Source: Nemertoderma westbladi (lineage: Eukaryota; Animalia; Xenacoelomorpha). Taken from it: a DNA stretch of 64,000 nucleotides. This document shows, one piece after another, positions 13,081-61,734 of the stretch (positions are counted from its first letter, which is position 1; the number at the start of each line of letters is the position of its first letter). Made by a program: the position numbers and the translations under genes. The notes beneath the pieces are model-generated. The model was not told where the DNA came from and searched no databases. It saw only the letters and a list, made by a program, of their open reading frames with translations. The DNA lies in NCBI GenBank assembly GCA_032718475.1, contig JAUCBJ010006781.1, forward strand, positions 62,001-126,000, given 5' to 3'.

Positions 13081-13104
13081 AGAATGTTAATTAGAATGCT
13101 TCAA

Positions 13105-14770: not shown

Positions 14771-14774
14771 CGAC

Positions 14775-28405: not shown

Positions 28406-28747
28406 ATGACTGGATGTTGTGGAGACGAAGTTGAAAGAAAAGATGAACCTAAAAAATTCGACCCGAATTTCAAAGGGCCAATCAAAGATCGAGGTTGTAC
28501 TGACGTCATATGTTGCGTCATCTATACAGCGTTCCTGGTCGGTCTCGGTATAGTCAGTTACTTCGCATACAGTCAGGGTGACCCAAACAGACTGCTACAC
28601 CCTACAGACTCACAGGGGAATCTATGTGGCAACAATAATGTCGAGAGCGGGAAAGATTTTACCAACAAACCCTATATGATGTATTACGATATTACCAAAT
28701 GTATCAGTCCGACAACTCTTCTTACTGGGGGCTGTCTCACTCCACAG
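28406..28747 (+). CDS. SLC44A2: Choline transporter-like protein (SLC44A2/4/5-type), coding exon 1
   Basis: KFDPNFKGPIKDRGCTDVICC, GDPNRLLHPTDSQGNLCG, CLTPQ; donor CAG|GTATGT at 28748, phase 0. The symbol is approximate (invertebrate co-orthologue of A2/A4/A5). Confidence 0.93.
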
Positions 28748-37125: not shown

Positions 37126-37194
37126 CCCTGCAATTCCGCTGTATTTTGAACGTCATTATCTATCTCTATCTATCGTAATCAACTTTATCTTCCC

Positions 37195-37619
37195 TTCACC
37201 TTACGTACACTTTATTACACTGTATTTTTAACTTTATTTTTTCCAGTTCTGCATGGACTCCTGCGTTCTCCTTACGTACACCTTATGCCATTTTATTTTC
37301 AACTTTATTTTCTCCAGCTCTGCATGGACTCCTGTGTTCTCCTTGCGTACACCTTATGCCATTGTATTTTCAACTTTATTTTCTCCAGCTCTGCATGGAC
37401 TGTTGCGTTCTCCATACATACACTTTATTCCACTGTATTTTCAACTTTATTTTCTCCAGTTCTGCATGGACTCCTGTGTTCTCCTTACGTACACTTTATG
37501 CCACTGTATTTTCAACTTTATTTTCTCCAGTTCTGCATGGACTCCTGTGTTCTCCTTACGTACACCTTATGCCATTGTATTTTCAACTTTATTTTCTCCA
37601 GGTCTGCGTAGACGCTTGC
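37195..37619 (+). repeat. 71 bp tandem repeat of the SLC44 3' splice junction (6 acceptors)
   Basis: TTTATTTT(C/T)TCCAG ends at 37246, 37317, 37388, 37459, 37530 and 37601. The bases after each AG resemble the exon start (TTCTGCATGGACTCCTG vs GTCTGCGTAGACGCTTG). Confidence 0.95.
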
Positions 37620-39473
37620 CCAAAGGACTACTGGATTGCCCTAACAGACATTCTAATGCAAAAAGTTGTCGCAACTTCAACTGTATTCTACGCCCAGTAC
37701 TGCACAGAAACATTGGCTGCGAAAATAAGCAATCTGGAAACGCTAGTAGCAGAAGGAAAGTGTCCCGCATATATACTAAACAGCGAGGCCGTTCTAGGGA
37801 GATGCATACCAACGCTAATTAAAGATATACTAACATCAGGAGTTTCAACGGTTTATGAATTAAATAATGCGGAAATGACGGTGAAGACGTATCTACAAGC
37901 TCCAGGTGGATTCGAGATTGTCATCCCAGCTGGAACCGGAGGTTTATTCGAAAATATCGATGTTAACACGATTCAACAGGCAGGAACAGCCCTAACTACT
38001 TTATTAGACTTTGAAGACATAACTGCGAAAATATTCAAAGACTTCGGCTCTTGTTGGCCTTGGATAGTGGGTTTGCTCACAATGGGTATGATTTTCGCTT
38101 TATTCTGGGTTATCATAATGCGTTGGATCGCGGGTATAGTTGTGTGGATCCAGCTGATAGCGCTGCTGTTAGGTTTGGTGTTCGGGTTGTGGTACACGTG
38201 GGAGCAATACATAGCCGTATCAGCTAGCACTGTAAACGCAACAGCGTTCGCATTCTCGACAGACTTCTCTTACTACACAGGTCGAACGGAGTTCTGGCTA
38301 GCTTGCGCGATCACAGATGGTGTCATCCTTATCATTCTAATAATTTTACTTCTGTTTCTTTGCAAAAGAATTCGACTCGGAATACAAATGATTAAAGAAG
38401 GAAGTAAGGCGATTTCCGCTATGATGTTAACCTTATTCTACCCCTTGTTTGGTTATCTTCTTATATTGATAATTTTCGGAGGGTTTGGTGTAATAGCTGT
38501 CTATCTAGCTAGCAATGGAACACCGTACTATACTATAAGTTCCACCGACACAAACATAGCTGATACTACTTGCGATCCCGCGACATTCTCGCCGGCAAAC
38601 ACCGGAGATACATGTATGTTCAAGAACTACGGGGGTGATCCAAACATATTTCGTCTTCAAATCTACAATCTTTTCGCTTTGTTCTGGAATATGAATTTTG
38701 TAATGGCTTTCACTCAAGTTTCTTTAGCAGGCGCTTTCGCTTCTTGGTTCTGGGCTTTCGTTAAGCCAGACGATGTCCCTCTATTCCCACTCCTTTACGC
38801 CCAAGGGAGGGCGTTAAGATATCATCTGGGATCCTTGGCATTCGGTAGTCTTATCATTGCGATTGTTCAAATGATTCGAGTTATTCTAGAATACATTGAG
38901 TTCAAAGTTAAAGACAATGATAATATCATTGCGAAGTTCGTATTGAAATGTTTGAAATGTTGTTTTTGGTGTCTTGAAAAGATTATACGTTTTCTCACAA
39001 AGAACGCCTACATAATGATAGCAGTTCATGGAAAGAATTTCTGCCGTTCTGCTAAAGATGCGTTTTTTCTTCTTCTAAGAAATATAGTAAGAGTAGCGGT
39101 TCTCAACGGAATTACAGGGTTTCTATTGCTGATCGGGAAACTCGTTGTTACGGCAGCGATTGGAGTTCTAAGTTTCTTTTGTTTCAGCGGCCAGATTAAG
39201 ATTCCGTATTACAAGGTCGGAGTTGTTCCTCTTAATTACTACTACGTTCCAATGATAGTTGTTATTATCGGAACCTACGTGATCGCCTCAATGTTCTTTA
39301 GTGTCTATGATATGGCGATAGATACGCTATTTCTATGTTTTTTGGAAGACATGGAGCGGAATGATGGAAGTCCTGAGAAACCGTATTTTATGTCGAAAAG
39401 TTTGATGAGCCTAGCAGGAAAGAAAAACAAAAAAGAAAAAAAGAAAAAAGAAAAGGAACAGAAAACTGATTAA
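37602..39473 (+). CDS. SLC44A2: Choline transporter-like protein, coding exon 2 (total 737 aa)
   Basis: Acceptor TTCTCCAG|GTC gives TPQ|VCVDACP. Multiple TM helices; LAGAFASWFW, RYHLGSLAFGSLI, CCFWCLEK, NAYIMIAVHGKNFCRSAKDAF, DTLFLCFLEDMERNDGSPEKPYFMS. Confidence 0.96.
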   Translation, partial: VCVDACPKDYWIALTDILMQKVVATSTVFYAQYCTETLAAKISNLETLVAEGKCPAYILNSEAVLGRCIPTLIKDILTSGVSTVYELNNAEMTVKTYLQAPGGFEIVIPAGTGGLFENIDVNTIQQAGTALTTLLDFEDITAKIFKDFGSCWPWIVGLLTMGMIFALFWVIIMRWIAGIVVWIQLIALLLGLVFGLWYTWEQYIAVSASTVNATAFAFSTDFSYYTGRTEFWLACAITDGVILIILIILLLFLCKRIRLGIQMIKEGSKAISAMMLTLFYPLFGYLLILIIFGGFGVIAVYLASNGTPYYTISSTDTNIADTTCDPATFSPANTGDTCMFKNYGGDPNIFRLQIYNLFALFWNMNFVMAFTQVSLAGAFASWFWAFVKPDDVPLFPLLYAQGRALRYHLGSLAFGSLIIAIVQMIRVILEYIEFKVKDNDNIIAKFVLKCLKCCFWCLEKIIRFLTKNAYIMIAVHGKNFCRSAKDAFFLLLRNIVRVAVLNGITGFLLLIGKLVVTAAIGVLSFFCFSGQIKIPYYKVGVVPLNYYYVPMIVVIIGTYVIASMFFSVYDMAIDTLFLCFLEDMERNDGSPEKPYFMSKSLMSLAGKKNKKEKKKKEKEQKTD

Positions 39474-39714
39474 ACTTAACTGTACTTAAATGTGTTAGCT
39501 GTTCACCAAGTCTTATAATTAACCCTAATTACACTTAATTAATTAATAAATTACTGTAGGGCAATTGGTGGATGATGCATAATGGGGTGATACGTGGATT
39601 CTAGAATGGTTAATCAACCAATTAACTGTCGGAGATCAATAGCTACCTAACGTGGAACGATTATCGGGATAACTTCACAATTTAAAAATTAATGACATAA
39701 TTAATTGATGATAA

Positions 39715-41250
39715 ACAAAAGTAAACAATTACACAAGTGAACAAGTACATAAGTGAACTAGTAAAATAGTGAACAAGTAAACTAGTACACAAGTGAACAA
39801 GTACAAAAGTGAACTAGTGAACAAGTAAACTAGTACACAAGTGAACAAGTACATAAGGGAACTAGTAAATAAGTGAACAATTAAACTAGTACCCAAGTGA
39901 ACAAGTACATAAGTGAACTAGTAAACAAGTGAGCAAGTAAACTAGTACACACGTGAACAAGTACAAAAGTGAACTAGTAAACAAGTGAACAAGTAAACTA
40001 GTACACAAGTGAACAAGTACAAAAGTGAACTAGTAAACAAGTGAGCAAGTAAACTAGTACACAAGTGAACAAGTACAAAAGTGAACTAGTAAACAAGTGA
40101 ACAAGTAAACTAGTACACAAGTGAACAAGTACATAAGTGAACTAGTAAACAAGTGAACAAGTAAACTAGTACACAAGTGAACAAGTACATAAGTGAACTA
40201 GTAAAATAGTGAACAATTAAACTAGTACACAAGTGAACAAGTACATAAGTGAACTAGTAAAATAGTGAACAATTAAACTAGTACCCAAGTGTTAAAGTAC
40301 ATAAAGTGAACTAGTAAACAAGTGAACAAGTAAACTAGTACACAAGTGAACAAGTACATAAGTGAACTAGTAAACAAGTGAACAAGTAAACTAGTACACA
40401 AGTGAACAAGTACATAAGTGAACTAGTAAACAAGTGAACAAGTAAACTAGTACACAAGTGAACAAGTACATAAGTGAACTAGTAAAAAAGTGAACAATTA
40501 AACTAGTACCCAAGTGAACAAGTACATAAAGTGAAATAGTAAAAAAGTGAACAATTAAACTAGTACCCAAGTGAACAAGTACATAAGTGAACTAGTAAAT
40601 AAGTGAACAATTAAACTAGTACACAAGTGAACAAGTACATAAGTGAACTAGTAAAAATGTGAACATTTAAACTAGTACACAAGTGAACAATTAAACTAGT
40701 ACACAAGTGAACAATTAAACTAGTACACAAGTGAACAAGTACATAAGTGAACTAGTAAAAAATTGAACAATTAAACTAGTACACAAGTGAACAAGTACAT
40801 AAGTGAACTAGTAAAAAAGTGAACATTTAAACTAGTAAACAAGTGAACAAGTAAACTAGTTCACAAGTGAACAAGTAAACTAGTTCACAAGTGAACAAGT
40901 ACATAAGTGAACAAGTAAACTAGTACACAAGTGAACAAGTACACAAGTAAACTAGTAAAAAGGTGAACATTTAAACTAGTACACAAGTGAACAAGTACAT
41001 AAGTGAACTAGTAAAAAAGTGAACAATTAAACTAGTACACAAGTGAACAAGTACACTAGTTCACAAGTGAACAAGTAAACTAGTACACAAGTGAACAAGT
41101 ACATAAGTGAACAAGTAAACTAGTACACAAGTGAACAAGTACATAAGAGAACTAATAAAAAAGTGAACAATTAAACTAGTACACAAATAAAACAAGTAAA
41201 CTAGTACACAAGTGAACAACAAAAAAAGTACACAAGTGAAACAAGTACTA
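39715..41250. repeat. 8 bp-monomer satellite with a 56 bp (7x8) higher-order unit, downstream of SLC44
   Basis: AAGTGAAC-AAGTACAT-AAGTGAAC-TAGTAAAC-AAGTGAAC-AAGTAAAC-TAGTACAC. Confidence 0.93.
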
Positions 41251-44184
41251 TACATTACTGTAATTCGCGTTGGTAACCTGTTATGACGGATTTTTATACC
41301 AATTTACATGTAAATTGTATTATAATAATTGAATTATTAATATTATTACATTGAATGTTCCGCTATGGATTTATACTTTAGCTCTATGCGTTGAAAATTA
41401 TTCACTTTGTTCAATGAAACGCACCTCTATTGTTTATTTCAATATGACTGCCATAAACTGTGCCTCTAGATATCTTACAGTATCTTATTCGAAAGAACGC
41501 TAGTTCCTAATATTTTTCGTAACACGAAAATTAATAATCTATAAATTTTTGTAAAAACTTTAACAAAAATTATAATATATCTTATTTCGGAAAATTATAT
41601 TTAATTTCACAGAGCCGACTAGCTTGTATATTAATCGCTGTTAGCCAAATCCACCACCTCCACTCGCTTTTCATTATTTATTCTAAATTTTCATTGCGTA
41701 TTAATTAATTGGCGATGGTATGATCCTACTGTAATAATAATAATTAAATCCGTGAACTTGAACTACTTTGAACAGTATAGGCTCGTATAATGTGGCTCGC
41801 CACATATAATAACAGAGTTGTCCATGAAGTGTTTTATGTAACATGTTTGAATTTTACATGTCAAAGTACAATTAGAAAGATAACATCCATGCAGAGCATT
41901 CTGTAATTAAATGATGTAGGCCTAACTAAATATTTCGCAAATATTTTTCATACAGAATGATTGACTTTATTAAATTTTGCATGGCCCCATGTAGGATGGA
42001 AGGGAGGTAGCAATACCAGATTATTGAGATACTAAACATACAAATTAAGAATTTTTGTATTAACAACATTACGAAAAAAATGAGCACCAATTTAATGAGG
42101 TTTACTATCTGCCAGGAATGAATCACCTTTAATTGCCACATCGATATATATTGCCTAGAATTCGTTACAACAAACCGGCAGTCCATTAAACTGATGTTCT
42201 AATTGAATATTAACGGTAACCAGATTAACTTTATGATACGACCACGGAAACGAACTAAATTCCAGGAACGCTATACTAATTTCCAAAGATGTTGTCGCAC
42301 CGAGCCCCTATTCACTTACAGACTTAATTACGAGTTACTACTGTAGCCCGCATACTATTAGATTTCTTGATTTCATTCCATTTTAGGATTCTAACAAATA
42401 GCATTACATGAATTTTAGTCGCCCCTTTTACCCAATGGATATTCCTGTAGGTTACGAATCTGACTTCTTAGATTAAATTATGGGTGTCGCGTCACACGTG
42501 ACACATTACAAGTAACGTAATTAATAATGAATGTTAGATTCTCATCGAAACTGGTTGGCATGGCGTACGTATGTAATTTGACAGACTCTTTTTTGTCTTC
42601 AAAGACACCAGAGTGTTTATATAAAAACACACTGGGGATTTTTATAAAAATATTTATATGAAAAAAAAAACAATTTTCGAAAGCGAGTAAAGAAAGGCGA
42701 CCTCTCGCAAATTAGTGAATTTATTAATTCCATGAGTCAAAATGAAACTAAACTTGTAACCAGAAAGGTTAATAATCTACATGACTTAAAAAACAAACTA
42801 AACAATTAACTACCGAAATACATAATTATAATAAATATATATAAATAAATATATTATAATAAATATAATTTCGCGTTTTCTGTAATCCCCCCCCCCCCCC
42901 CCCCCCGCCCTATATACAAAAATTTTATGTGTACCAGATTGTCAACAAGATAACGAATCAGTAAACAAAATTATTTTTCATCGACTTGTTTTTTATTAAT
43001 TTTTCAAATAAACTTTTCAATGAATACGAATTGGCTAAGAATACGAATCCCATTGACGCACGTGAAATAACATGGTGTGTTGACTTTTACTATGATATCG
43101 GCTCTGTAAAAACTGGTGTAAGTAGAAAAAGGTGTATTGTTCTATTTATTCTACTTGTTTTTTTAGATACCTGATGCAAAATACAATTTGTTTACGCCGC
43201 CTGCACTAGGGTAGTATAGGGACTTCTACACCATCTCAGATTAATGGTTGTATTTAATGCAGTAACTTTCTGTTAGATTCTTAGCAGTGATTATACGCAT
43301 GGTAAAAAACAATAATAAGATGCAGAAATAAGTTTTCTTCACTTTTCTTTAAACTTTTTCAGAATTATTTTTCAGAGATAAGTTTTGTTAATTTTGCTTT
43401 GCCACTACTTTTTGTCTCGCCATTACTATGTGTTATATAGCATTCTATATTGTAAAAAGGACACACTCAATGGCCGTAATATGTGTTACTTTTCACCGAG
43501 ACTTTACAACAGCTCTGACAAGTTGATGATATGTAACAAATATTAATAAAAACAATGAATTTTAATTAAATTATATTTATTAAAATCATAAAATTCGATA
43601 TAAACAAATAAATATTTCAAAACCCACATATACTACAATACAGACAAAGTATATATTATGCCTCCATACCTGTACACCTTTATAGTATTATGTGGTGTAC
43701 AACATTGAAGTGGCTACTTTATATATAACAAGAAGGAACATTTAAGACAATGTTTGCTATTAACATTTTATATAAGGCACCAAGTTTTGCATCACCGACA
43801 ATATAATAATATCGAATTTACAATTCGTTACGCTTGCGTTACCAGCTTATAAATTCAAATAGGGAAGCAAAATAAATAAATAAATATACATTTATCGACT
43901 TACATATACAAGCACTGTTTCTATTTATACATAATATATGCAACTAAAACACCAACCAAATATTATTTATGTCAAACAAAACGTTTTTCAGTAATTCTTT
44001 TTGGATTATTATCAATTTAGAATAAAACCACGTACTCGGTGTGGAGTCCCGAATAGACGGGGCGACACGGCAATGAATTTTTGAAATAAAATCCACCCAC
44101 AATTCTCCTATTCCAGCCACCCCGACTATTAGCATAATGAAATTTTTCCACCCAACCCGTTTATTAGGGACTCCAGAGTACATA

Positions 44185-44980
44185 TATACTTGTAAAGTAC
44201 TTTACAGTGTTATTATCCTCGTATCAGTACTAGCACTCACTCGCTATGTTCTTTCTTGTAACAAACAACTCGGATTAGAACATAGAAACTATAATTAAAG
44301 TGCTACTTTTTTCCCGGTATGTATATAGTTATCATGAATTTATTCCAAAATTGTAACATTACTCAACGCCGTTAATATTAACAACGAGTTTTGTTATTTA
44401 GCACTTTACAAGTACAGTAGTACTAGTTAGTCCATTACAACCGGTACATTTAGTGATATAATATTATGTTGTAATGTCCCAATAGAGCGACTTTACAGTG
44501 CACCCGTTCAATGTAAGTGAATCTTTGGGATCGCCATGGTTACCACATAAACAAAAGTTGGTATTTATTATTAATTGCCTGACATGACAGCCAGATAGGT
44601 CTACTGCATTACCTACTGGTAGGCGGGGTATAGCTATTAATAACCAGTAGCTATAAACTATTAACATGGCTCCAAACGCCACCATAAATATAAGCTAACT
44701 TATTTATAACATAATTTATGTCATTTTTACATTTATTTATACAGCAACTAATATAATTTGTGCAGTTTCTATCACTTATAATGTATATGTACAATAATTT
44801 CGTAATGTTAAAATTTTGGAATAAAACTACATACATACTTGTTGCAAAGTACTTTACAGTGTTCTGATCCTCGTGGCTTTATTTTCACTCACTCACTAAC
44901 GTTCGTTCGTGTAACAAAGCCACTCGAATCATCACACTGTGAAGTGCTACTTTACACACAACTATGTAAATAGTTTTTAT
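44185..44980 (+). repeat. Pair of diverged ~140 bp dispersed repeats (~44185-44330 and ~44835-44980)
   Basis: Shared AAAGTACTTTACAGTGTT..ATCCTCGT...CACTCACTC...GTAACAAA..ACTCG...AAGTGCTACTTT. Confidence 0.7.
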
Positions 44981-45248
44981 TTACAAATATTTTTTTCGTA
45001 CAATAAAACCCTTTAAATTAATTTTTCACAAAATTGGTATTATATATATATAAATCTTGAGTGAATAAAAACCGTTAAATATGCAAATGGATTGTGAAAC
45101 GAATTTTGCAGCAAAAATTAAGGAAAAAAGAACTGCCTTATTATTTATTAATTGCCACGAACATATTTACAATATTAATTTAATTTATTTTTCTCTTTTC
45201 TATTTATTTATTTTTATACTAAATATTATTTATATCAATTTTGATTGA

Positions 45249-45393
45249 TTATTTGGTTGATATGTCTCCCCTGACCACATCCGTCGGTGCATTGTATTGT
45301 AACCATGACAACTGCATTCCTCTCTTGAACTGCTCGAAGAGAACAAACATACAAATATTCCAGGTCCCCAAACGCATAAACGACGGCATAAAC
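45249..45393 (-). CDS. UCP2: Mitochondrial uncoupling protein (UCP1-3-like), last coding exon
   Basis: Acceptor TTTCCAG|G, phase 2, giving FYKG|FMPSFMRLGTWNICMFVLFEQFKR...STK*. Confidence 0.93.
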
Positions 45394-47372
45394 CTGGAAA
45401 TAAAGTAAACAATGACATAAACCTGGAAATAAAGTAAACAATGACATAAACCTGGAAATAAAGTAAACAATGACATAAACCTGGAAATAAAGTAAACAAT
45501 GACATAAAGCTAGGAAATAAAGTAAACAATGACATAAACCTGGAAATAAAGTAAACAATGACATAAACCTGGAAATAAAGTAAACAATGACATAAAGCTA
45601 GGAAATAAAGTAAACAATGACATAAAGCTAGGAAATAAAGTAAACAATGACATAAACCTGGAAATAAAGTAAACAATGACATAAACCTGGAAATAAAGTA
45701 AACAATGACATAAACCTGGAAATAAAGTAAACAATGACATAAACCTGGAAATAAAGTAAACAATGACATAAACCTGGAAATAAAGTAAACAATGACATAA
45801 ACCTGGAAATAAAGTAAACAATGACATAAACATGGAAATAAAGTAAACAATGACATAAACCTGGAAATAAAGTAAACAATGACATAAACCTGGAAATAAA
45901 GTAAACAATGACATAAACCTGGAAATAAAGTAAACAATGACATAAACCTGGAAATAAAGTAAACAATGACATAAACCTGGAAATAAAGTAAACAATGACA
46001 TAAACCTGGAAATAAAGTAAACAATGACATAAACCTGGAAATAAAGTAAACAATGACATAAACCTGGAAATAAAGTAAACAATGACATAAACCTGGAAAT
46101 AAAGTAAACAATGACATAAAGCTAGGAAATAAAGTAAACAATGACATAAACCTGGAAATAAAGTAAACAATGACATAAACCTGGAAATAAAGTGAACAAT
46201 GACATAAACCTGGAAATAAAGTAAACAATGACATAAACCTGGAAATAAAGTAAACAATGACATAAACCTGGAAATAAAGTTAACAATGACATAAACCTGG
46301 AAATAAAGTAAACAATGACATAAACCTGGAAATAAAGTAAACAATGACATAAACCTGGAAATAAAGTAAACAATGACATAAACCTGGAAATAAAGTAAAC
46401 AATGACATAAACCTGGAAATAAAGTAAACAATGACATAAACCTGGAAATAAAGTAAACAATGACATAAACCTGGAAATAAAGTAAACAATGACATAAACC
46501 TGGAAATAAAGTAAACAATGACATAAACCTGGAAATAAAGTAAACAATGACATAAACCTGGAAATAAAGTAAACAATGACATAAACCTGGAAATAAAGTA
46601 AACAATGACATAAACCTGGAAATAAAGTAAACAATGACATATACCTGGAAATAAAGTAAACAATGACATAAACATGGAAATAAAGTAAACAATGACATAA
46701 ACCTGGAAATAAAGTAAACAATGACATAAACCTGGAAATAAAGTAAACAATGACATAAACCTGGAAATAAAGTAAACAATGACATAAACCTGGAAATAAA
46801 GTAAACAATGACATAAACCTGGAAATAAAGTAAACAATGACATAAACCTGGAAATAAAGTGAACAATGACATAAACCTGGAAATAAAGTGAACAATGACA
46901 TAAACCTGGAAATAAAGTAAACAATGACATAAACCTGGAAATAAAGTAAACAATGACATAAACCTGGAAATAAAGTAAACAATGACATAAACCTGGAAAT
47001 AAAGTAAACAATGACATAAACCTGGAAATAAAGTAAACAATGACATAAACCTGGAAATAAAGTAAACAATGACATAAACCTGGAAATAAAGTAAACAATG
47101 ACATAAAGCTAGGAAATAAAGTAAACAATGACATAAACCTGGAAATAAAGTAAACAATGACATAAACCTGGAAATAAAGTAAACAATGACATAAACCTGG
47201 AAATAAAGTAAACAATGACATAAACCTGGAAATAAAGTAAACAATGACATAAACCTGGAAATAAACCTGGAAATAAAGTAAACAATGACATAAACCTGGA
47301 AATAAAGTAAACAATGACATAAACCTGGAAATAAAGTAAACAATGACATAAAGCTAGGAAATAAAGTGAACA
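45380..47372 (-). repeat. 29 bp tandem repeat of the UCP last-intron 3' splice junction, ~68 copies
   Basis: Minus-strand unit GTTTATGTCATTGTTTACTTTATTTCCAG. Degenerate copies continue to 47540 and again at 51216-51275. Confidence 0.97.
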
Positions 47373-47537
47373 AAAGCAAAAATACGGAAAATTAGGTAAA
47401 GAACAGCTTAAAGTTTGAGAATAATGTCACCGATGACATTAAAATGGAATATAAAGTAAATAAGGATTAAACTTGGAAAAAATCAAACAATGGCATAAAA
47501 CTGTAAATTAAAACTGAGAAATAAAGTTAACTTAATG

Positions 47538-47540
<3 letters not shown>

Positions 47541-47579
<39 letters not shown>

Positions 47580-50500
47580 ATAAATTCCCGGCTTACGCCC
47601 CGGTGGCTATATTCACTTAACCGCAAAATAAAATGTTCGTGCACTGGTTAAAAGAAGAACAATATGTGACAGAGGGTAGTATATGAATTAAAAATATTTA
47701 AGGAAGATGCCAAATCATGACTTTAAGATTAATATAGATTACCATATTATATGCCATAACGTTCCATTACTATACAATATCTATTATTATCGCGTATCTA
47801 TTTATTAACGAATATATGAAAAACCCCGTCACTTGTAAACAAAATAGGATAGTGTACAGGTAAATTATTGCACAAATGTAAAAAATTAAACAATTTATAA
47901 TATATAGAGCGATAGTGTAATAAAATCATAGAGCGCGTTATATAATAACGTTCAACTAAATAAATGATTATATACTTTTTAAACAAAAATTAACGATCAT
48001 ATTACGATCATTACAATTAAAGTCGAAAATAGTGTCATAAAATATCAGTCACTTAGTTATTTTTTATGGTAATTAATCTAAATAAGAATCAAATAGTAAC
48101 TGTAATAGTTAGTAACAAGAAAAAGTGAGGCTTAATAAAAATATTTATAATTCGATTAAATTGTATCAGAAAATAAATAAAATATGAAACAAGCACGCAT
48201 ACATGTACTGTATGTTATGATGGATGCTAGATGCACAAACTGTTGTATATATCTATACCAATATACCAACTATAAAATAATAATAACAATATCATTAACA
48301 ATATATATATATATATTAATCTCATAGATTATATGATAAAAAGAAGACTTTATGGTTAGAAACGGTGTCTAAATCAGTCTGTAAAAGTTTGATGTGTAGG
48401 TTTAGTCTAGCCCAAAGAACGATAATATTGTAGTATGTTTGGATGTATGGTCATTATTGCAGTTGTTTAGGATTGATCGGAAATAAGAGCTATGAAACTT
48501 TTCTTTGAAGGTTAGGGGGATGTTTCCAGCTTTAGTTCTGACCTTTGCTCCTTTTAACACCTTCTTCACACAGTATTGTGAGGTAGCAATACTAGTGAGT
48601 GTCGGGAGACCTTCTTGCCACGATAAAAGTTCATGGGGTGGTGCGTCCAGTGGTTCAGCTATTTCTGATTGTGGGGACATTGAACACGCATCTATAGTTG
48701 CATAGTCTGTACTTTCATCAGTATCACTCTCAAAGGTAAATTTACTGCTCCTGCTCTTCTTTTTGTAACGTTTCGACTTTTTCTTTTTTGACTTTTTGTT
48801 GCTGTTTTTGTTATTATTCAAGATAGTTTCTTTGGTGATACCTTCATTCCTTAGTTGTGTGTTGTCTGAGTGAGTAGTCTCTGAGTCTGAGTCATTGTGA
48901 TCTTTTCCCTGCATGGGATTGGTCGAATTACAGCAAAATCTACAGGTAGATGTAGGTTGTTGTGTCTGTAACTCGTCTAGGCCGTTTTCCATGGCATCCA
49001 CCTTATTTTGTGTTACTCGCAATTGGCTGTTTATTGTTTTCACTTCGACTTGCAGGTTGGCTACAAGGTCCACAAGTTGGAAAAGGCTGAAGGTGTCGAG
49101 GGTTCCTATATGCACCCTTTTCTTAAAAATGGGTGTAATTGCGGAGCTTTCAGCAACCAGTGCAAACTCAGCCACGTCAGCTGCTAGTTCATCAATGGAG
49201 CGACGGTTTATTGCACTTATGTTGAGGCTTGGAGTGCTCCCCAGAATATTTGTCTTTATATGTTCAAAGAGCATCTTTTGTATGTTATTTAAAGATTCAA
49301 GGCCTATAGGTAATAGTGCCCGAATAAGTATGTCTTTAGGGTTCCTTAGAATATTCGAGTCGATTAGAATTTTTAATACATCCAGTGCTGTGTTTGCTTT
49401 TCGCAATTTTGTGTGGCTCCCTTGGAAGCCAGCGTTGTGGATTTCATTCTGGGTGGATTCGTTTTGAGATCGGGTGTGTGGGGCATGGTGACCCTGGGAT
49501 TTATTTGTTGGTACTCGTCCAGTTGTGTTCTCTGCAGATTTAGTTTTTTGTTGTTTGCCGGTCTTTATTCCAAAGTTTGGGCCAGTGTTTAAGAATCTTT
49601 CATCTTGAGGTGCATTTGGTTTCATTACCGATTTTCTTTCTATGGAAGTTGCCATCCAAACTCTACCCTGTGCACATTCGTTATTTGTCATTTTCTTGGC
49701 AAAAACGTTATTTTCTTTAGGGAAAGCAAGCATATAGGAATACACACACACGAAAATCCCACAGTCGACGTTATTTGTTTGCTTTGGGAATTGAGACATG
49801 TTTGGGGCTTGTATTGGGCGCCATTGGTCAAAGTTTAGACTTGAGGGTAAAGTTTTCGTAGAGGGGGTCAGGTTATCAATTGTGTTAAGGACGTTGCATA
49901 GTGCTTTTGTTGTGTTTGTGTAATATGGGTTTCCCATTGGACAGAGAGTATAAATTTCTTTGTCCTTAGGGATAGCGACATGTAATACAAAGTGCCCTAT
50001 TGGAGTATTAGAATATTGTCTACACTCTGGGATTAGCAAAATTTCTATGTCTGGTCGTTTGTATCTACTACTGGCAAATTTGACCAAGGAAAACATATCA
50101 CTTAGTGGTGTACTGAGCTTGGTCGAAAACTCTGTAGGTAAAATGCCTACACGAAAATTTGTGCTTTCCTCTAGGAGGTAGAGAACGGAGTTTACTAGTG
50201 CATCGTTTATACATGTACCTGGGCTCAACAAAATCATATCGTCCTTTGTAAGTTTGGTTAAAATATTCTCCATGTTTGTTGGCTTGCACTTTGTATTTAA
50301 TAGAGTCAAATATTTCTCACTAGCCAGGAAACGTTTAATTTTAACTCGTTTTTGATCTTCATCACTGTTGTCTATCGGTGGGTGGTACGTTTCATACAAA
50401 AGTTCGATGGGATTGTGGTCGTCATCGCTTAGGAGATCATCTCGGTTCCTTGGCTTGATCTTCTCCGAAACGTCACCTCTGTGTTCGGCGGATTCGGCCA

Positions 50501-51215
50501 GGTTCCGTGGGTTTATCTTCTCCGAATCGTCTCCACGGTGTTCGGCAGAATCAGCCCGGTCCAGTGGATTTACCTTCTCCGAAATGTCACCGTGGTGTTC
50601 GGCGTGATTGATCCGATCCTGTGGGTTTATCTTTTCAAGATCGTCGCTGCGGTGTTTGGCGGAATTGACCTGGTTCCATGGGTTGATCTTCTCTGAATCA
50701 TTGCCATCGTGTTCGGGGGAAATGGCACGGTTCCGTGGGTTTGTCTTCTCAGAAAGTTCTCCACGGTGATCGGTGGAATCGGCACAAATCTGTTGGTTTA
50801 TCTTCGCCAAATCGTCACCGCAGTGTTCGGCTGAAACAGCCTGCTCTCGTGGGTTTATCTTCTCCAAATCGCCAATGCGTCGTTGTTCGGCAGAAACGTC
50901 CCAGTCCTGTGAGTTTATCTTCTCTGAATCGCCGCTACGGTGTTCGGCAGAATCGGCCCTGTCCCGTGGGTTTATCCTCTCTGAATCGTCACCACGGTGT
51001 TCAGTGGAAACGGCCCGGTTTTGTGGGTTTATCTTCTTTGTGTTGGTGCCTGGTGGTGGTGTTCTCGGTATCTCCCATTTAACCACCAGAGGCGATTTCA
51101 TCGTGTGGCTTAATGTAGTAATGCCGTAATGTCGTAAGTAGTTATATTTAAACAGGATCGTTACAGCGCATCAATTAGTAGATATTTTTTTTTTTTTTAA
51201 TTACGGGCTAGTGTT
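47541..51215 (-). mobile_element. ~3.7 kb insertion with a 35 nt poly(A) tail (minus strand) in the UCP intron
   Basis: T35 at 47541-47575. The flanks rejoin into one degenerate 29-mer (TAATGGTA|TAAGACTGGAAATAAAGT), with GTA(T) present on both sides. Confidence 0.75.
48402..51101 (-). CDS. 899 aa ORF: N-terminal ~20 aa repeats, Ulp1/C48-like cysteine protease domain, coiled coil, basic tract
   Basis: CINDALVN (cf. WLNDEVIN), GHFVLHV and PKQTNNVDCGIFVC; about 10 EHRGDDSEKINPRN-like repeats; KKSKKKKSKRYKKK. Confidence 0.8.
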   Translation of the reverse strand: MKSPLVVKWEIPRTPPPGTNTKKINPQNRAVSTEHRGDDSERINPRDRADSAEHRSGDSEKINSQDWDVSAEQRRIGDLEKINPREQAVSAEHCGDDLAKINQQICADSTDHRGELSEKTNPRNRAISPEHDGNDSEKINPWNQVNSAKHRSDDLEKINPQDRINHAEHHGDISEKVNPLDRADSAEHRGDDSEKINPRNLAESAEHRGDVSEKIKPRNRDDLLSDDDHNPIELLYETYHPPIDNSDEDQKRVKIKRFLASEKYLTLLNTKCKPTNMENILTKLTKDDMILLSPGTCINDALVNSVLYLLEESTNFRVGILPTEFSTKLSTPLSDMFSLVKFASSRYKRPDIEILLIPECRQYSNTPIGHFVLHVAIPKDKEIYTLCPMGNPYYTNTTKALCNVLNTIDNLTPSTKTLPSSLNFDQWRPIQAPNMSQFPKQTNNVDCGIFVCVYSYMLAFPKENNVFAKKMTNNECAQGRVWMATSIERKSVMKPNAPQDERFLNTGPNFGIKTGKQQKTKSAENTTGRVPTNKSQGHHAPHTRSQNESTQNEIHNAGFQGSHTKLRKANTALDVLKILIDSNILRNPKDILIRALLPIGLESLNNIQKMLFEHIKTNILGSTPSLNISAINRRSIDELAADVAEFALVAESSAITPIFKKRVHIGTLDTFSLFQLVDLVANLQVEVKTINSQLRVTQNKVDAMENGLDELQTQQPTSTCRFCCNSTNPMQGKDHNDSDSETTHSDNTQLRNEGITKETILNNNKNSNKKSKKKKSKRYKKKSRSSKFTFESDTDESTDYATIDACSMSPQSEIAEPLDAPPHELLSWQEGLPTLTSIATSQYCVKKVLKGAKVRTKAGNIPLTFKEKFHSSYFRSILNNCNNDHTSKHTTILSFFGLD

Positions 51216-51470
51216 GTATAAGACTGGAAATAAAGTAACCAATAGCAAAAAACTGAAAATAAATTAAGAGTAATGTATCGGTCAGACTAAGCGATCGTTA
51301 TCGGGTTGATTAGAATTGCTTGAATCAATTAATGTGGTAATAAGTGATTAAATAATTTGCAACAGAAGGTGCGCTCAAGGTTCGTTCGTTTACTAACCTC
51401 TCTGAGTGCAAACTGAAACGATTCACTTTACTTACAAATATATAAAACCTATAAATATTATGTAACTGAC

Positions 51471-51753
51471 CCTTTGTAAAACGTAAGGAGGCCGTTTTCT
51501 TTAAACATTTTCACGGTGCAGTCTATCAAACCGCGATACTGCCCGGGGGACGAATTCATGTAACGAGTTTTAATAACATCAACGGGAGACGCGACGCAAG
51601 TAGTAAACAGCCCTGCTGAGAAAGCCGAGACGAAATGGCAGGGAAAGTTATCCGACATGAGTTTCCGCTTCAGAATGGCCTCCTTTACGAGATCGTAACA
51701 CACCAATTCGCAGCAGTTAACAACAGCGTTACGGGCCATATTGGGTGTCGTAC
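51471..51753 (-). CDS. UCP2: UCP internal coding exon
   Basis: TTACAG|GT ACG ACA CCC gives [24 protein letters not shown]...[13 protein letters not shown]...FYKG; donor GTCAGT at 51470. Confidence 0.95.
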
Positions 51754-54700
51754 CTGTAATAATTACCAAAATAGTTACATGTATGTCGTACCTGTAATAA
51801 ATACCAAAATAGTTACCATGTGTGACGTACCTGTAATAAATACCAAAATAGTTACCCTGTGTGTCGTACCTGTAATAAATACCAAAATAATTACCATGTG
51901 TGTCGTACCTGTAATAATTACCAAAATAGTTACCATGTGTGTCGTACCTGTAATAATTACCAAAATAATTACCATGTGTGTCGTACCTGTAACAATTACC
52001 AAAATAGTTACCATGTGTGTCGTACCTGTAATAATTACCAAAATAGTTACATGTATGTCGTACCTGTAATAAATACCAAAATAGTTACCATGTGTGACGT
52101 ACCTGTAATAATTACCAAAATAGTTACCATGTGTGTCGTACCTGTAACAATTACCAAAATAATTACCATCTGTGTCGTACCTGTAACAATTATCAAAATA
52201 GTTACCATGTGTGACGTACCTGTAATAAATACCAAAATAGTTACCCTGTGTGTCGTACCTGTAATAATTACCAAAATAATTACCATGTGTGTCGTACCTG
52301 TAACAATTACCAAAATAGTTACCATGTGTGTCGTACCTGTAATAATTACCAAAATAGTTACATGTATGTCGTACCTGTAATAAATACCAAAATAGTTACC
52401 ATGTGTGTCGTACCTGTAATAATTACCAAAATAGTTACCATGTGTGTCGTACCTGTAATAATTACCAAAATAGTTACATGTATGTCGTACCTGTAATAAA
52501 TACCAAAATAGTTACCATGTGTGTCGTACCTGTAATAATTACCAAAATAGTTACCATGTGTGTCGTACCTGTAACAATTACCAAAATAGTTACCATGTGT
52601 GTCGTACCTGTAACAATTACCAAAATAATTACCATCTGTGTCGTACCTGTAACAATTACCAAAATAGTTACCATGTGTGTCGTACCTGCAATAATTACCA
52701 AAATAGTTAACATGTGTGTCGTACCTGTAACAATTACCAAAATAGTTACATGTGTGTCGTACCTGTAATAATTACCAAAATAGTTACATGTGTGTCGTAC
52801 CTGTAATAATTACCAAAATAATTACCATGTGTGTCGTACCTGTAACAATTACCAAAATAGTTACCATGTGTGTCGTACCTGTAATAATTACCAAAATAAT
52901 TACCATGTGTGTCGTACCTGTAACAATTACCAAAATAGTTACATGTGTGTCGTACCTGTAATAATTACCAAAATAATTACCATGTGTGTCGTACCTGTAA
53001 CAATTACCAAAATAGTTACCATGTGTGTCGTACCTGTAACAATTACCAAAATAGTTACCATGTGTGTCGTACCTGTAATAATTACCAAAATAGTTAACAT
53101 GTGTGTCGTACCTGTAAAAATTACCAAAATAGTTACATGTGTGTCGTACCTGTAATAATTACCAAAATAGTTACCATGTGTGTCGTACCTGTAATAAATA
53201 CCAAAATAATTACCATGTGTGTCGTACCTGTAACAATTACCAAAATAGTTAGCATGTGTGTCGTACCTGTAATAATTACCAAAATAATTACCATCTGTGT
53301 CGTACCTGTAACAATTATCAAAATAGTTACCATGTGTGTCGTACCTGTAATAATTACCAAAATAGTTACCATGTGTGTTGTACCAGTAACAATTACCAAA
53401 ATAGTTACCATGTGTGTCGTACCTGTAACAATTACCAAAATAGTTACCCTGTGTGTCGTACCTGTAACAATTACCAAAATAGTTACCATGTGTGTCGTAC
53501 CTGTAATAAATACCAAAATAGTTACCATGTGTGACGTACCTGTAATAAATACCAAAATAATTACCATGTGTGTCGTACCTGTAACAATTACCAAAATAGT
53601 TACCATGTGTGTCGTACCTGTAATAATTACCAAAATAGTTACCATGTGTGTCGTACCTGTAACAATTACCAAAATAGTTACCATGTGTGTCGTACCTGTA
53701 ATAATTACCAAAATAGTTACCATGTGTGTCGTACCTGTAACAATTACCAAAATAGTTACCATGTGTGTCGTACCTTGTATTCTTGTATTCTTGTATATAT
53801 ATTTAGTGATTTAAAATTCACACGGTAGAACTCGTAGAGCACACCAAATTAAGTACATAAACCTAAAAACTGCAGTATATCAAATAATTAAGTACGGGCC
53901 TACAGTTGTAAAAATTACGCAAATAAGGCACAAAATGCACATAACTAATAATAAGAAAAAAAACATTACAGTAAAAATATACATTGTATACAAATTGTGC
54001 AAAAACTGGCTAATTCTTCTGTTTAAATGGACAATGCAATGAAAGAAATGTAGTCCATTTAATTTATTTTAATACTTGTACCTTAGTTAGGGAGTTTGAC
54101 TGGATAGGTCTCGAGTCAGTGTATCCAGGCGAGCCGGGACAATCTGGGACGGTGAAAAGATATGCATCAAGATGCTTTTTAAAAGTCTCCAGTGCGCAGC
54201 ATGTCAAGTCTCTTATATGTTTTGGGATGGTGTTAAATAATTTAGGTCCAATAACACAAAAACTGTTGTCTATAAGAGAGGAGACGCGACATGTAGCCTT
54301 ACTTGCAAGGGACGGTATGGTACAAAGTCGACCTCTGCGGATGTTTTTTGTAGATTTAATTTTATAGGTTAAATCTGAAATATTTGGAACTCTATTTTCG
54401 ATAATTTTCCATGTATATATTATTATATACCTTTCTCTCCTCCGCTGTACCTGTAACAATTACCAAAATAGTTACCATGTGTGTCGTACCTGTAATAAAT
54501 ACCAAAATAATTACCATGTGTGTCGTACCTGTAACAATTATCAAAATAGTTACCATGTGTGTCGTACCTGTAACAATTACCAAAATAGTTACCATGTGTG
54601 TCGTACCTGTAATAAATACCAAAATAGTTACCATGTGTGTCGTACCTGTAATAAATACCAAAATAATTACCATGTGTGTCGTACCTGTAACAATTACCAA

Positions 54701-57700
54701 AATAGTTACCATGTGTGTCGTACCTGTAATAATTACCAAAATAATTACCATGTGTGTCGTACCTGTAACAATTACCAAAATAGTTACCATGTGTGTCGTA
54801 CCTGTAATAAATACCAAAATAGTTACCATGTGTGACGTACCTGTAATAAATACCAAAATAATTACCATGTGTGTCGTACCTGTAACAATTACCAAAATAG
54901 TTATCATGTGTGTCGTACCTGTAATAATTACCAAAATAGTTACCATGTGTGTCGAACCTGTAACAATTACCAAAATAGTTACCATGTGTGTCGTACCTGT
55001 AATAATTACCAAAATAGTTACCATGTGTGTCGTACCTGTAATAATTACCAAAATAGTTACCATGTGTGTCGTACCTGTAACAATTACCAAAATAGTTACC
55101 ATGTGTGTCGTACCTGTAACAATTACCAAAATAGTTACCATGTGTGTCGTACCTGTAATAATTACCAAAATAGTTACCATGTGTGTCGTACCTGTAACAA
55201 TTACCAAAATAGTTACCATGTGTGTCGTACCTGTAATAATTACCAAAATAGTTACCATGTGTGTCGTACCTGTAATAATTACCAAAATAGTTACCATGTG
55301 TGTCGTACCTGTAATAATTACCAAAATAGTTACCATGTGTGTCGTACCTGTAATAAATACCAAAATAATTACCATGTGTGTCGTACCTGTAACAATTACC
55401 AAAATAGTTATCATGTGTGTCGTACCTGTAATAATTACCAAAATAGTTACCATGTGTGTCGAACCTGTAACAATTACCAAAATAGTTACCATGTGTGTCG
55501 TACCTGTAATAATTACCAAAATAGTTACCATGTGTGTCGTACCTGTAATAATTACCAAAATAGTTACCATGTGTGTCGTACCTGTAACAATTACCAAAAT
55601 AGTTACCATGTGTGTCGTACCTGTAATAATTACCAAAATAGTTACCATGTGTGTCGTACCTGTAATAAATACCAAAATAATTACCATGTGTGTCGTACCT
55701 GTAACAATTACCAAAATAGTTACCATGTGTGTCGTACCTGTAATAATTACCAAAATAATTACCATGTGTGTCGTACCTGTAACAATTACCAAAATAGTTA
55801 CCATGTGTGTCGTACCTGTAATAATTACCAAAATAGTTACCATGTGTGTCGTACCTGTAACAATTACCAAAATAGTTACCATGTGTGTCGTACCTGTAAT
55901 AATTACCAAAATAGTTACCATGTGTGTCGTACCTGTAATAATTACCAAAATAGTTACCATGTGTGTCGTACCTGTAACAATTACCAAAATAGTTACCATG
56001 TGTGTCGTACCTGTAATAATTACCAAAATAGTTACCATGTGTGTCGTACCTGTAATAATTACCAAAATAATTACCATGTGTGTCGTACCTGTAACAATTA
56101 CCAAAATAGTTACCATGTGTGTCGTACCTGTAATAATTACCAAAATAGTTACCATGTGTGTCGTACCTGTAACAATTACCAAAATAGTTACCATGTGTGT
56201 CGTACCTGTAATAATTACCAAAATAGTTACCATGTGTGTCGTACCTGTAATAAATACCAAAATAATTACCATGTGTGTCGTACCTGTAACAATTACCAAA
56301 ATAGTTACCATGTGTGTCGTACCTGTAATAATTACCAAAATAGTTACCATGTGTGTCGTACCTGTAATAAATACCAAAATAATTACCATGTGTGTCGTAC
56401 CTGTAACAATTACCAAAATAGTTACCATGTGTGTCGTACCTGTAATAATTACCAAAATAATTACCATGTGTGTCGTACCTGTAATAATTACCAAAATAGT
56501 TACCATGTGTGTCGTACCTGTAATAATTACCAAAATAGTTACCATGTGTGTCGTACCTGTAACAATTACCAAAATAGTTACCATGTGTGTCGTACCTGTA
56601 ATAATTACCAAAATAGTTACCATGTGTGTCGTACCTGTAATAAATACCAAAATAATTACCATGTGTGTCGTACCTGTAACAATTACCAAAATAGTTACCA
56701 TGTGTGTCGTACCTGTAATAATTACCAAAATAATTACCATGTGTGTCGTACCTGTAACAATTACCAAAATAGTTACCATGTGTGTCGTACCTGTAACAAT
56801 TACCAAAATAGTTACCATGTGTGTCGTACCTGTAATAATTACCAAAATAGTTACCATGTGTGTCGTACCTGTAACAATTACCAAAATAGTTACCATGTGT
56901 GTCGTACCTGTAACAATTACCAAAATAGTTACCATGTGTGTCGTACCTGTAATAATTACCAAAATAGTTACCATGTGTGTCGTACCTGTAATAAATACCA
57001 AAATAATTACCATGTGTGTCGTACCTGTAACAATTACCAAAATAGTTACCATGTGTGTCGTACCTGTAATAATTACCAAAATAATTACCATGTGTGTCGT
57101 ACCTGTAACAATTACCAAAATAGTTACCATGTGTGTCGTACCTGTAATAATTACCAAAATAGTTACCATGTGTGTTGTACCAGTAACAATTACCAAAATA
57201 GTTACCATGTGTGTCGTACCTGTAACAATTACCAAAATAGTTACCCTGTGTGTCGTACCTGTAATAATTACCAAAATAATTACCATGTGTGTTGTACCAG
57301 TAACAATTACCAAAATAGTTACCATGTGTGACGTACCTGTAATAATTACCAAAATAGTTACATGTATGTCGTACCTGTAATAAATACCAAAATAGTTACA
57401 TGTGTGTCGTACCTGTAATAATTACCAAAATAATTACCATGTGTGTCGTACCTGTAACAATTACCAAAATAGTTACCATGTGTGTCGTACCTGTAACAAT
57501 TACCAAAATAGTTACCATGTGTGTCGTACCTGTAATAATTACCAAAATAGTTAACATGTGTGTCGTACCTGTAACAATTACCAAAATAGTTACCATGTGT
57601 GTCGTACCTGTAACAATTACCAAAATAGTTACCATGTGTGTCGTACCTGTAACAATTACCAAAATAGTTACCATGTGTGTCGTACCTGTAACAATTACCA

Positions 57701-60044
57701 AAATAGTTACCATGTGTGTCGTACCTGTAACAATTACCAAAATAATTACCATGTGTGTCGTACCTGTAACAATTACCAAAATAGTTACCATGTGTGTCGT
57801 ACCTGTAACAATTACCAAAATAGTTACCATGTGTGTCGTACCTGTAATAATTACCAAAATAGTTACCATGTGTGTTGTACCAGTAACAATTACCAAAATA
57901 GTTACCATGTGTGTCGTACCTGTAACAATTACCAAAATAGTTACCCTGTGTGTCGTACCTGTAATAATTACCAAAATAGTTACATGTATGTCGTACCTGT
58001 AATAATTACCAAAATAGTTACCATGTGTGTTGTACCAGTAACAATTACCAAAATAGTTACCATGTGTGTCGTACCTGTAATAATTACCAAAATAGTTACC
58101 ATGTGTGTTGTACCAGTAACAATTACCAAAATAGTTACATGTGTGACGTACCTGTAACAATTACCAAAATAGTTACCCTGTGTGTCGTACCTGTAATAAT
58201 TACCAAAATAATTACCATCTGTGTCGTACCTGTAACAATTACCAAAATAGTTACCATGTGTGTCGTACCTGTAATAATTACCAAAATAATTACCATGTGT
58301 GTCGTACCTGTAACAATTACCAAAATAGTTACCATGTGTGTCGTACCTGTAATAATTACCAAAATAGTTACCATGTGTGTTGTACCAGTAACAATTACCA
58401 AAATAGTTACCATGTGTGTCGTACCTGTAACAATTACCAAAATAATTACCATGTGTGTCGTACCTGTAACAATTACCAAAATAGTTACATGTGTGTCGTA
58501 CCTGTAATAATTACCAAAATAATTACCATGTGTGTCGTACCTGTAACAATTACCAAAATAGTTACCATGTGTGTCGTACCTGTAACAATTACCAAAATAG
58601 TTACCCTGTGTGTCGTACCTGTAATAATTACCAAAATAATTACCATGTGTGTCGTACCTGTAACAATTACCAAAATAATTACCATGTGTGTCGTACCTGT
58701 AACAATTACCAAAATAGTTACCATGTGTGTCGTACCTGTAACAATTACCAAAATAGTTACCCTGTGTGTCGTACCTGTAATAATTACCAAAATAATTACC
58801 ATGTGTGTCGTACCTGTAACAATTACCAAAATAATTACCATGTGTGTCGTACCTGTAACAATTACCAAAATAGTTACATGTGTGTCGTACCTGTAATAAT
58901 TACCAAAATAGTTACCATGTGTGTCGTACCTGTAATAATTACCAAAATAGTTACCATGTGTGTCGTACCTGTAATAATTACCAAAATAATTACCATGTGT
59001 GTCGTACCTGTAACAATTACCAAAATAGTTACCATGTGTGTCGTACCTGTAACAATTACCAAAATAGTTACCCTGTGTGTCGTACCTGTAATAATTACCA
59101 AAATAATTACCATGTGTGTCGTACCTGTAATAATTACCAAAATAGTTACCATGTGTGTCGTACCTGTAATAATTACCAAAATAGTTACCATGTGTGTCGT
59201 ACCTGTAATAATTACCAAAATAGTTACCATGTGTGTCGTACCTGTAATAATTACCAAAATAGTTACCATGTGTGTCGTACCTGTAATAATTACCAAAATA
59301 ATTACCATGTGTGTCGTACCTGTAATAATTACCAAAATAATTACCATGTGTGTCGTACCTGTAATAATTACCAAAATAGTTACCCTGTGTGTCGTACCTG
59401 TAATAATTACCAAAATAATTACCATGTGTGTCGTACCTGTAACAATTACCAAAATAATTACCATGTGTGTCGTACCTGTAACAATTACCAAAATAGTTAC
59501 CATGTGTGTCGTACCTGTAACAATTACCAAAATAGTTACCCTGTGTGTCGTACCTGTAATAATTACCAAAATAATTACCATGTGTGTCGTACCTGTAACA
59601 ATTACCAAAATAATTACCATGTGTGTCGTACCTGTAACAATTACCAAAATAGTTACATGTGTGTCGTACCTGTAACAATTACCAAAATAGTTACCCTGTG
59701 TGTCGTACCTGTAATAATTACCAAAATAATTACCATGTGTGTCGTACCTGTAATAATTACCAAAATAGTTACCATGTGTGTCGTACCTGTAATAATTACC
59801 AAAATAGTTACCATGTGTGTCGTACCTGTAATAATTACCAAAATAGTTACCATGTGTGTCGTACCTGTAATAATTACCAAAATAGTTACCATGTGTGTCG
59901 TACCTGTAATAATTACCAAAATAATTACCATGTGTGTCGTACCTGTAATAATTACCAAAATAATTACCATGTGTGTCGTACCTGTAATAATTACCAAAAT
60001 AGTTACCCTGTGTGTCGTACCTGTAATAATTACCAAAATAGTTA
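51745..60044 (-). repeat. 39 bp (some 38 bp) tandem repeat of the UCP 3' splice junction, ~195 copies
   Basis: Minus-strand unit GTACGACACACATGGTAACTATTTTGGTAATT(A/G)TTACAG. The last copy supplies the real acceptor at 51754. Confidence 0.97.
53776..54446 (-). mobile_element. 3' fragment of a CR1/L2-group LINE inserted in the 39 bp array
   Basis: QRRRERYIIIYTWKII...SFCVIGPKLFNTIPKHIR...FKKHLDAYL; 8 bp tail (AATACAAG)n; GTACCT on both sides (53770-53775 and 54447-54452). Confidence 0.85.
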
Positions 60045-60130
60045 ATATTCATATTGTGTGGCGGACTTTTTGTACATGTATCAAAATAATTACAGAATGT
60101 CGCCGGATTATATTCTGGAACTTTACTAAC

Positions 60131-60334
60131 CCTTCCACAAGCCTCTTCGTATACCTTCGTCTCGAGCTATTGAGGAATAGGCCTGCCAGGTTTTACGGTA
60201 CCGTCTAGGCTGTCCAGGCACAAAAGCCTGAAACCGAACTTTAACAACGTCAGTTGGCTGAGCGAATAGGACAGCTGAAGAGCCGGTAGTGACGCCGGCT
60301 AGAATGCGGATAAGTATGTCGACGTTCTTCAATT
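60131..60334 (-). CDS. UCP2: UCP internal coding exon
   Basis: TTCTAG|AA acceptor; [28 protein letters not shown]...RRY...GLWKG (carrier signature PxDVVKVR); donor GTTAGT at 60130. Confidence 0.95.
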
Positions 60335-61130: not shown

Positions 61131-61258
61131 CTTTATTATTATTCAATTGGGTTAACTTGGTTGTGTAGATTTCCTTAACTCGGTCATATAAACCAATTCG
61201 TATCGAGGCGAAACACATTTGTCGATGGAGCCCAGCTATTAAACCGTTATACATTCCT
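61131..61258 (-). CDS. UCP2: UCP internal coding exon (not in the ORF track); upstream exons probably lie beyond the window
   Basis: TTACAG|A GGA ATG translates [32 protein letters not shown]; donor G|GTAATA; phases match the next exon. Confidence 0.92.
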
Positions 61259-61734
61259 CTGTAACATATAAATCATTATGTGGCTTAGACTGCATCAATC
61301 AACACGGGAGATTCGAAACTATTTTAGGTGTCTAGCAGCGGAAGCTATCCACATTGACTAATATCTCAAGAAGATCCACCCTAATCTCTCAAGAAGATCC
61401 CCCAATTAACTTAAATTAGTCTTAAATAAAATTTGAACACAAGTAAGCTGAATCTTTGCAATTATCAGCTGATTAGCGCCAAAAATTAAACTGTAGCCTT
61501 GAAACATTTGTTATAGAATCTCGATTATTATTTTTGGTTTGAATAAATTTGCCACTGTGACCAGCTCCTTTCCCTTAATTGGTTAGGAACATGGTTAATT
61601 CGCCGAGATAGGATTTGAATCAATCTGAAATGCTCGAGGCCCCCCAGAGGGGCCATCCTAGAGGAGCCATTGCCCCTTCCTAGAGGAGGCCTGTGGGTGG
61701 TAATGGAGGACTGCTTTATTATATATTAAAGATA

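Follow-up and report, generated by a model that had tools for sequence, protein, structure and literature searches.

We analyzed a 64,000-nt stretch of the genome of Nemertoderma westbladi (Xenacoelomorpha; GenBank assembly GCA_032718475.1, contig JAUCBJ010006781.1, positions 62,001 to 126,000 of the forward strand), referred to here as the window. It holds a choline transporter-like gene (SLC44) on the forward strand and an uncoupling protein gene (UCP) on the reverse strand, and three of their introns carry at the 3′-end a tandem array that abuts the next exon: A1 in SLC44, A2 in the last UCP intron and A3 in an 8.4-kb UCP intron (Table 1). The arrays were called by Tandem Repeats Finder (TRF) within the window, 37% of which is made up by fifteen tandem arrays. 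The unit of all three consists of the end of its own intron joined to the start of the exon that follows. An original prediction on this DNA had described the three arrays, and they were found where it had placed them, with 6 (A1), 69 (A2) and ∼196 (A3) acceptor copies including the last one. The A3 count derives from 197 pattern hits, one of which, inside an insertion, was spurious and was dropped.

The prediction that the last copy of each array is the functional acceptor held up on the gene models. When spliced via the last A1 copy, whose predicted true acceptor is 37601 (CAG|GT, the bar marking the junction), SLC44 encodes 737 aa and internal stops are absent. Its best homologs among the 120 matches listed are 46–48% identical and belong to hemichordates and lancelets (47% for the best lancelet match). 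The UCP reading frame stays open across four exons upon splicing to the last array copies, and the exon that follows A3 has UCP2 as its best PDB match (E=3e-39). The last UCP exon would end at ∼44911 by arithmetic from a spliced contig, and no clear poly(A) signal coincides with that point. At A3, the use of the last copy is also borne out by an RNA-like contig from X3, one of the runs considered below. The two remaining acceptors, TAG|AA and CAG|AG, are array-free, as had been stated.

Table 1. Coordinates of the two genes, their junction arrays (A1 to A3) and associated repeats in the window
Feature	Position	Strand	Characteristics
SLC44 coding exon 1	28406..28747	+	donor GTATGT at 28748; without junction array
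13-bp minisatellite	29043..37128	+	∼625 copies; 91% of the SLC44 intron; not splice-junction-derived
Array A1	37195..37607	+	TRF; 71-bp unit x5.8; ∼53 nt of intron end and ∼18 nt of diverged exon start
SLC44 coding exon 2 (last coding exon)	37602..39473	+	Pfam PF04515, E=9e-102
UCP last coding exon (coding part up to the stop)	45249..45393	-	open frame in the spliced model
Array A2	45387..47373	-	TRF; 29-bp unit; 17 nt of intron end and 12 nt of exon start
Decayed older A2 junction copies	47374..47530	-	alignment score matched by 0/1000 dinucleotide shuffles
∼3.6-kb block splitting the A2 copies	47580..51220	-	likely mobile insertion; edges approximate
Stranded A2 relic unit	51224..51252	-	24/29 identical; 218 nt away from the donor, beyond the insertion as seen from the array
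UCP exon after array A3	51471..51753	-	PF00153; donor GTCAGT at 51470; start joins the upstream donor in run X3
Array A3	51745..60044	-	TRF; 39-bp unit; ∼196 acceptor copies
Insertion within A3 (639 bp)	53815..54453	-	6-bp flanking duplication; short tandem tail
Decayed relic of ∼46-bp founder unit	60045..60093	-	holds exon bases absent from the modern 39-bp unit; 0/2000 dinucleotide shuffles
Sole non-repeat 5′ part of the A3 intron (37 nt)	60094..60130	-	begins with donor GTTAGT
UCP exon	60131..60334	-	PF00153; acceptor TAG|AA (60334) without array; within the spliced X3 contig
UCP exon	61131..61258	-	acceptor CAG|AG (61258) without array; the 796-nt intron below is absent from the X3 contig

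Probable origin and turnover of the arrays

Junction-spanning arrays were seen 3 times in the window, vs. 0.15 expected (P=5e-4, uncorrected for window selection), and the prediction that the arrays are seeded at splice junctions beyond chance is thereby retained. A bias for AG|GT was non-significant, with arrays at 3/3 CAG|GT acceptors vs. 0/2 others (p=0.10), and so was a bias for acceptors, with 3 arrays among 5 acceptors vs. 0/4 donors (p=0.12). Elsewhere in the window, 14-mers of the units recurred only in a single A2 relic and as a lone A3 14-mer. The inner units are 88–98% alike, and the outermost copies have decayed.

Array A3 comprises 194 units (179 of 39 bp and 15 of 38 bp), which fall into 29 distinct variants laid out in higher-order patterns. 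An identical run of 5 bases at intron position −25 and exon position +22 predicts a 46-bp founder unit, and a decayed relic of about that size lies at the outer edge of the array (Table 1). Only 37 nt at the 5′-end of the intron are non-repeat; therefore, the intron probably started at about 60 nt and would have grown to its present 8377 nt. The 639-bp insertion inside A3 matched 0 Pfam families; it is likely a 5′-truncated fragment of a long interspersed nuclear element.

In A2, identical 5 bases at intron position −17 and exon position +13 predict a duplication of exactly 29 bp, and 14/17 of the first bases of the unit match the exon. The relic unit stranded beyond the ∼3.6-kb block is the best match to the A2 unit in the window outside the array; therefore, the duplication likely predates the insertion. 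The block contains an intact 922-aa open reading frame (ORF; 48402-51170, -) that includes a 57-bp (19-aa) coding repeat, present 10 times, and weakly resembles Ulp1/C48 peptidases (E=1.7e-5), and a 35-base A run is found at its far end. This ORF is likely part of a mobile element.

The internal A1 acceptors end at 37246, 37317, 37388, 37459 and 37530. The exon-like part of the A1 unit is diverged, with 12/17 first bases matching the exon, and the internal copies carry common changes that the exon does not have. The introns had been described as filled with their own acceptor, which is accurate for A3 (92% of its intron) and overstated for A2 (35%) and A1 (5%). Likewise, the description of the arrays as unrelated is upheld for two pairs, the similarity scores of A1/A3 and A2/A3 being reached by 885/1000 and 493/1000 shuffles, and is doubtful for A1/A2. 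The units of these two have in common a 12-base motif and a tract before CAG (37531-37601, +, vs. 45394-45422, -), with a score reached by shuffles in 20/10000, 1/5000 and 3/1000, which is borderline given 28 pairwise comparisons. In A2 the common motif stems from the exon, whereas in A1 it lies in the intron. A core common to all arrays of the window was not found (A1/A56, 707/1000 shuffles); the A56/A2 score was reached by 25/1000, and only A1/A2 stands out.

We consider it likely that A1, A2 and A3 are "mirage" minisatellites, that is, local duplications of an intron's own boundary that were subjected to minisatellite turnover and in which the last acceptor is used. Each array would have begun with one local tandem duplication across the old acceptor, probably guided by the 5-base microhomologies. 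Minisatellite turnover would then have expanded and homogenized the copies, with slippage or unequal crossing-over as the putative engine, while outer copies decayed and selection would have kept the exon-adjacent one. The AG|GT sequence is unnecessary under such a course of events.

The original prediction had also named AG|GT as the signature of a different origin, namely that introns are made by tandem duplication of exonic AGGT, as proposed by Rogers and demonstrated for ATP2A (PMC3265369). All used junctions are indeed AG|GT. However, the model predicts that the intron starts like the downstream exon and ends like the upstream exon, and in all six comparisons of intron ends with neighboring exon ends only 4–8/20 identities were seen. 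In addition, each intron has a separate, unrelated donor, and both array-bearing UCP intron positions are presumably common to vertebrate UCP genes. We regard this origin as highly improbable.

An assembly artefact, either in the arrays themselves or in their copy numbers, is also very unlikely. No spanning read or contig was seen for any array, and the copy numbers are those of the assembly alone. However, neither collapse nor stutter would be expected to give 29 variants in a higher-order arrangement, decay of the outermost copies and an insertion flanked by a duplication. Five of the eight runs contain the SLC44 exon, and four were compared over 60050-61700. The DNA contigs of X2 and X4 reach 35 letters beyond this interval; if colinear, both would stop at 60015, the point at which the edge of A3 should interrupt a 31-mer graph. 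Indirectly, this suggests that other DNA has the edge too, and the X4 contig shows 9 differences from the window.

Splicing past the internal copies

The X3 run yielded one 1373-nt spliced contig (depth 492) that holds exons only and leaves out the 796-nt GT-AG intron. On account of these two properties we treated X3 as RNA; none of the runs is recorded as such. In this contig, donor 60131 runs straight into the true exon start, including the bases that differ from the A3 unit; therefore, the main mRNA skips all internal A3 copies. The choice of the distal acceptor, one of the two options raised in the original prediction, fits this contig. The distal acceptor probably wins because only the last copy precedes a full exon, as exon definition would have it. 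Products of mis-splicing would for the most part be broken; their decay may play a role, and the arrays may be nearly neutral. When the beta-globin 3′ splice site was duplicated so that the proximal exon measured 14–205 nt, splicing in vitro went only to the distal copy and was inefficient (PMC5389562).

Another reading is weak use of the internal copies, either as alternative acceptors or as small cassette exons, which would tune UCP or SLC44 output via decay or short insertions. The A3 unit equals 13 codons, and the use of a 39-bp cassette would be in frame. Taken as exon extensions, 188/188 internal A3 acceptors meet a stop owing to the 38-bp variant in the terminal position, a stop that an in-frame cassette would escape. 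Among the A1 acceptors, 4/5 meet a stop and 1/5 would add 71 aa in frame. Nevertheless, the X3 contig was the single one at the A3 donor among those listed, and 59/60 internal A2 acceptors break the C-terminus. The 38-bp variant represents 15/194 units overall and 8/51 near the exon, so that its terminal position may be chance. A regulatory role of this kind appears quite unlikely to us.

The original prediction had read AG|GT as the signature of recursive splicing. In such a dual-specific route, which would make AG|GT units tolerable and favor their amplification, the donor would join an internal acceptor, and the regenerated GT would remove the array stepwise. CAG|GT is found at every used junction and at neither array-free acceptor, and 188/195 internal A3 copies retain it, in the form CAG|GTA/T and with a fair match to a donor. 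Ratchet points require a downstream donor that defines a cryptic exon (PMC8605326), and A3 has a candidate for it every 39 nt. In the human UBC gene, a tandem AGGT array is spliced stochastically, and such expansions are suggested to be less harmful (PMC10809524).

However, the statement that all junctions read CAG|GT stands for the three used ones and is incomplete inside the arrays: GT is present in 0/5 internal A1 copies (3 CAG|TT, 2 CAG|CT), 59/68 internal copies of A2, whose 69 units have the core, and the A3 fraction given above. Donors regenerated after a ratchet step match the consensus at 5/9 (A2) and 6/9 (A3) positions vs. 7–8/9 for the real donors (n=4), the AG|GT association itself has p=0.10, and of the amphioxus repeats "many, but not all" have AG/GT signals (PMC3087553). 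The real A3 exon begins with the identical six bases, and a strong re-splicing donor would be expected to cut the correct mRNA too. Judged on the letters of the units, recursive splicing would be impossible at the A1 copies, is unlikely at A2 and is borderline at A3. Taken as a whole we rate recursive re-splicing as unlikely, and the AG|GT signature is not upheld.

Copy number tracks donor quality across A1, A2 and A3 (6, 69 and 196; n=3). A broader version holds that a systematic, acceptor-biased amplification, beginning at boundaries that have short microhomologies, is a major source of intron growth in this genome and that good AG|GT donors allow larger arrays via rescue by re-splicing. We give this little credence. 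If true, array size would scale with the strength of the regenerated donor, and these introns could serve to test, in nature, both stochastic recursive splicing and the way in which the last among ∼190 identical acceptors is chosen.

Several observations weigh against local duplication followed by turnover. First, no founder microhomology is visible for A1, and the borderline resemblance of the A1 and A2 units appears unexplained by it. Second, plain minisatellite turnover does not explain the seeding at junctions above chance (3 arrays at 9 splice sites), nor does it account for arrays lying at acceptors and at none of the four donors, a difference that was non-significant. Third, the internal A3 CAG|GTACGA, in place, has a 7/9 match to the donor consensus, equal to three of the four real donors, and may be used cryptically as a donor. 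Finally, RNA support covers one of the three array junctions (A3) in one run; assembled contigs drop rare forms, so that X3 is blind to minor isoforms, and a recursive path would yield an identical mature mRNA.

Other features of the window

The SLC44 coding sequence (28406-39473, +) has one intron, and the neighboring UCP gene has at least 4. With about 20 exons in vertebrate SLC44 genes, the single-intron structure suggests that many introns were lost or that the gene arose as a retrocopy. About 245 bp past the SLC44 stop lies a 56-bp higher-order array (39719-41247) with 8/16-bp subunits, which is not junction-derived.

The CpG observed/expected ratio was 0.94–1.27 in four exon or non-coding regions (28406-64000), revealing no depletion and hinting at low DNA methylation here. 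CpG decay was considered as the cause of the changes between units and exon, and is unsupported by these ratios.

The part of the window upstream of SLC44 holds a BEL/Pao-type long terminal repeat retrotransposon with an intact 2698-aa ORF (240-8336, -; Peptidase_A17, DUF1759, DUF5641 and an integrase zinc finger), two broken non-long terminal repeat reverse-transcriptase elements with RVT_1 matches (14769-16656, +, and 25379-26847, +) and a 243-aa ORF (12369-13100, -) that has no Pfam match. Two segments near the UCP exons, 60850-60915 and 61550-61625, reached a summed depth of up to 37,000 in all DNA runs vs. a base of 14–31, and are high-copy dispersed repeats. A 57-bp part of the first one (60854-60910) is skipped by the X4 and X1 contigs and is therefore polymorphic.

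Known boundary repeats and what the arrays mean

The amphioxus "mirages" are minisatellite-like duplications of intron/exon boundaries, one of which, in BflGb6, comprises an acceptor plus the start of the exon (Ebner et al. 2010; PMC3087553). They are regularly spliced and unstable in length, their edge copies escape homogenization, and a link to the Rogers model has already been drawn (PMC3087553). Globin mirages occur in BflGb6 and BflGb9 (PMC3087553), those of troponin C and PGBD5 were added later (PMC3902484), and the units of the Adh3 mirage are reported to measure 10–72 bp (Canestro et al. 2002). The arrays described here are like them in having boundary-spanning tandem copies, overlapping unit sizes, partial retention of splice signals and diverged edges; a normal mRNA was seen here for A3 in one contig. 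In contrast, A2 and A3 have ∼69 and ∼196 copies vs. 2–7 in the globin and PGBD5 cases, and the three arrays lie at acceptors whereas both intron ends are affected in amphioxus. The host is also of a different animal lineage, as the 47% identity of the best lancelet SLC44 match illustrates. The attribution of the process to "this lineage" was thus too narrow, given the like structures published for amphioxus (PMC3087553, PMC3902484). A genome-wide study of junction-spanning repeats was not found by title or start of abstract, in a literature that was mostly non-subscription.

Other known systems are similar in part. In the 37-bp variable number tandem repeat of human F7 intron 7, the terminal unit spans the real splice site, the identical pseudo-sites are silent and the exon-adjacent copy wins (PMC1557585). 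There, however, the repeat is on the donor side and the choice is explained by 5′-to-3′ scanning. Scanning in that direction would not pick the last acceptor; therefore, the choice made here needs another explanation. Drosophila ratchet points (PMC8605326) and the dual-specific AGGT of UBC (PMC10809524) have juxtaposed AG|GT, the form of the A2 and A3 units; when compared with ratchet points, A1 lacks the GT, and that of A2 and A3 is known here from sequence. The UBC repeats are coding units with variable isoforms, whereas the X3 contig skips all A3 units. The Rogers model (PMC3265369) likewise involves duplication across AG|GT, but there a new intron is made inside an exon, and here an existing intron with its own donor is lengthened.

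The feature is real, and it is an unusually large mirage of a kind already known from amphioxus. With it, mirage repeats are known from a further animal lineage and at a far greater size: copies of its own acceptor make up 92% of one intron, whose founder probably measured about 60 nt. Such loci are a warning for gene predictors. The finding would matter more if a genome-wide bias for acceptors or for AG|GT, or recursive intermediates, held true. The A3 intron offers a clean natural substrate for studying how the spliceosome gets past 188 intact decoy acceptors, the opposite of what a first-come choice would predict.

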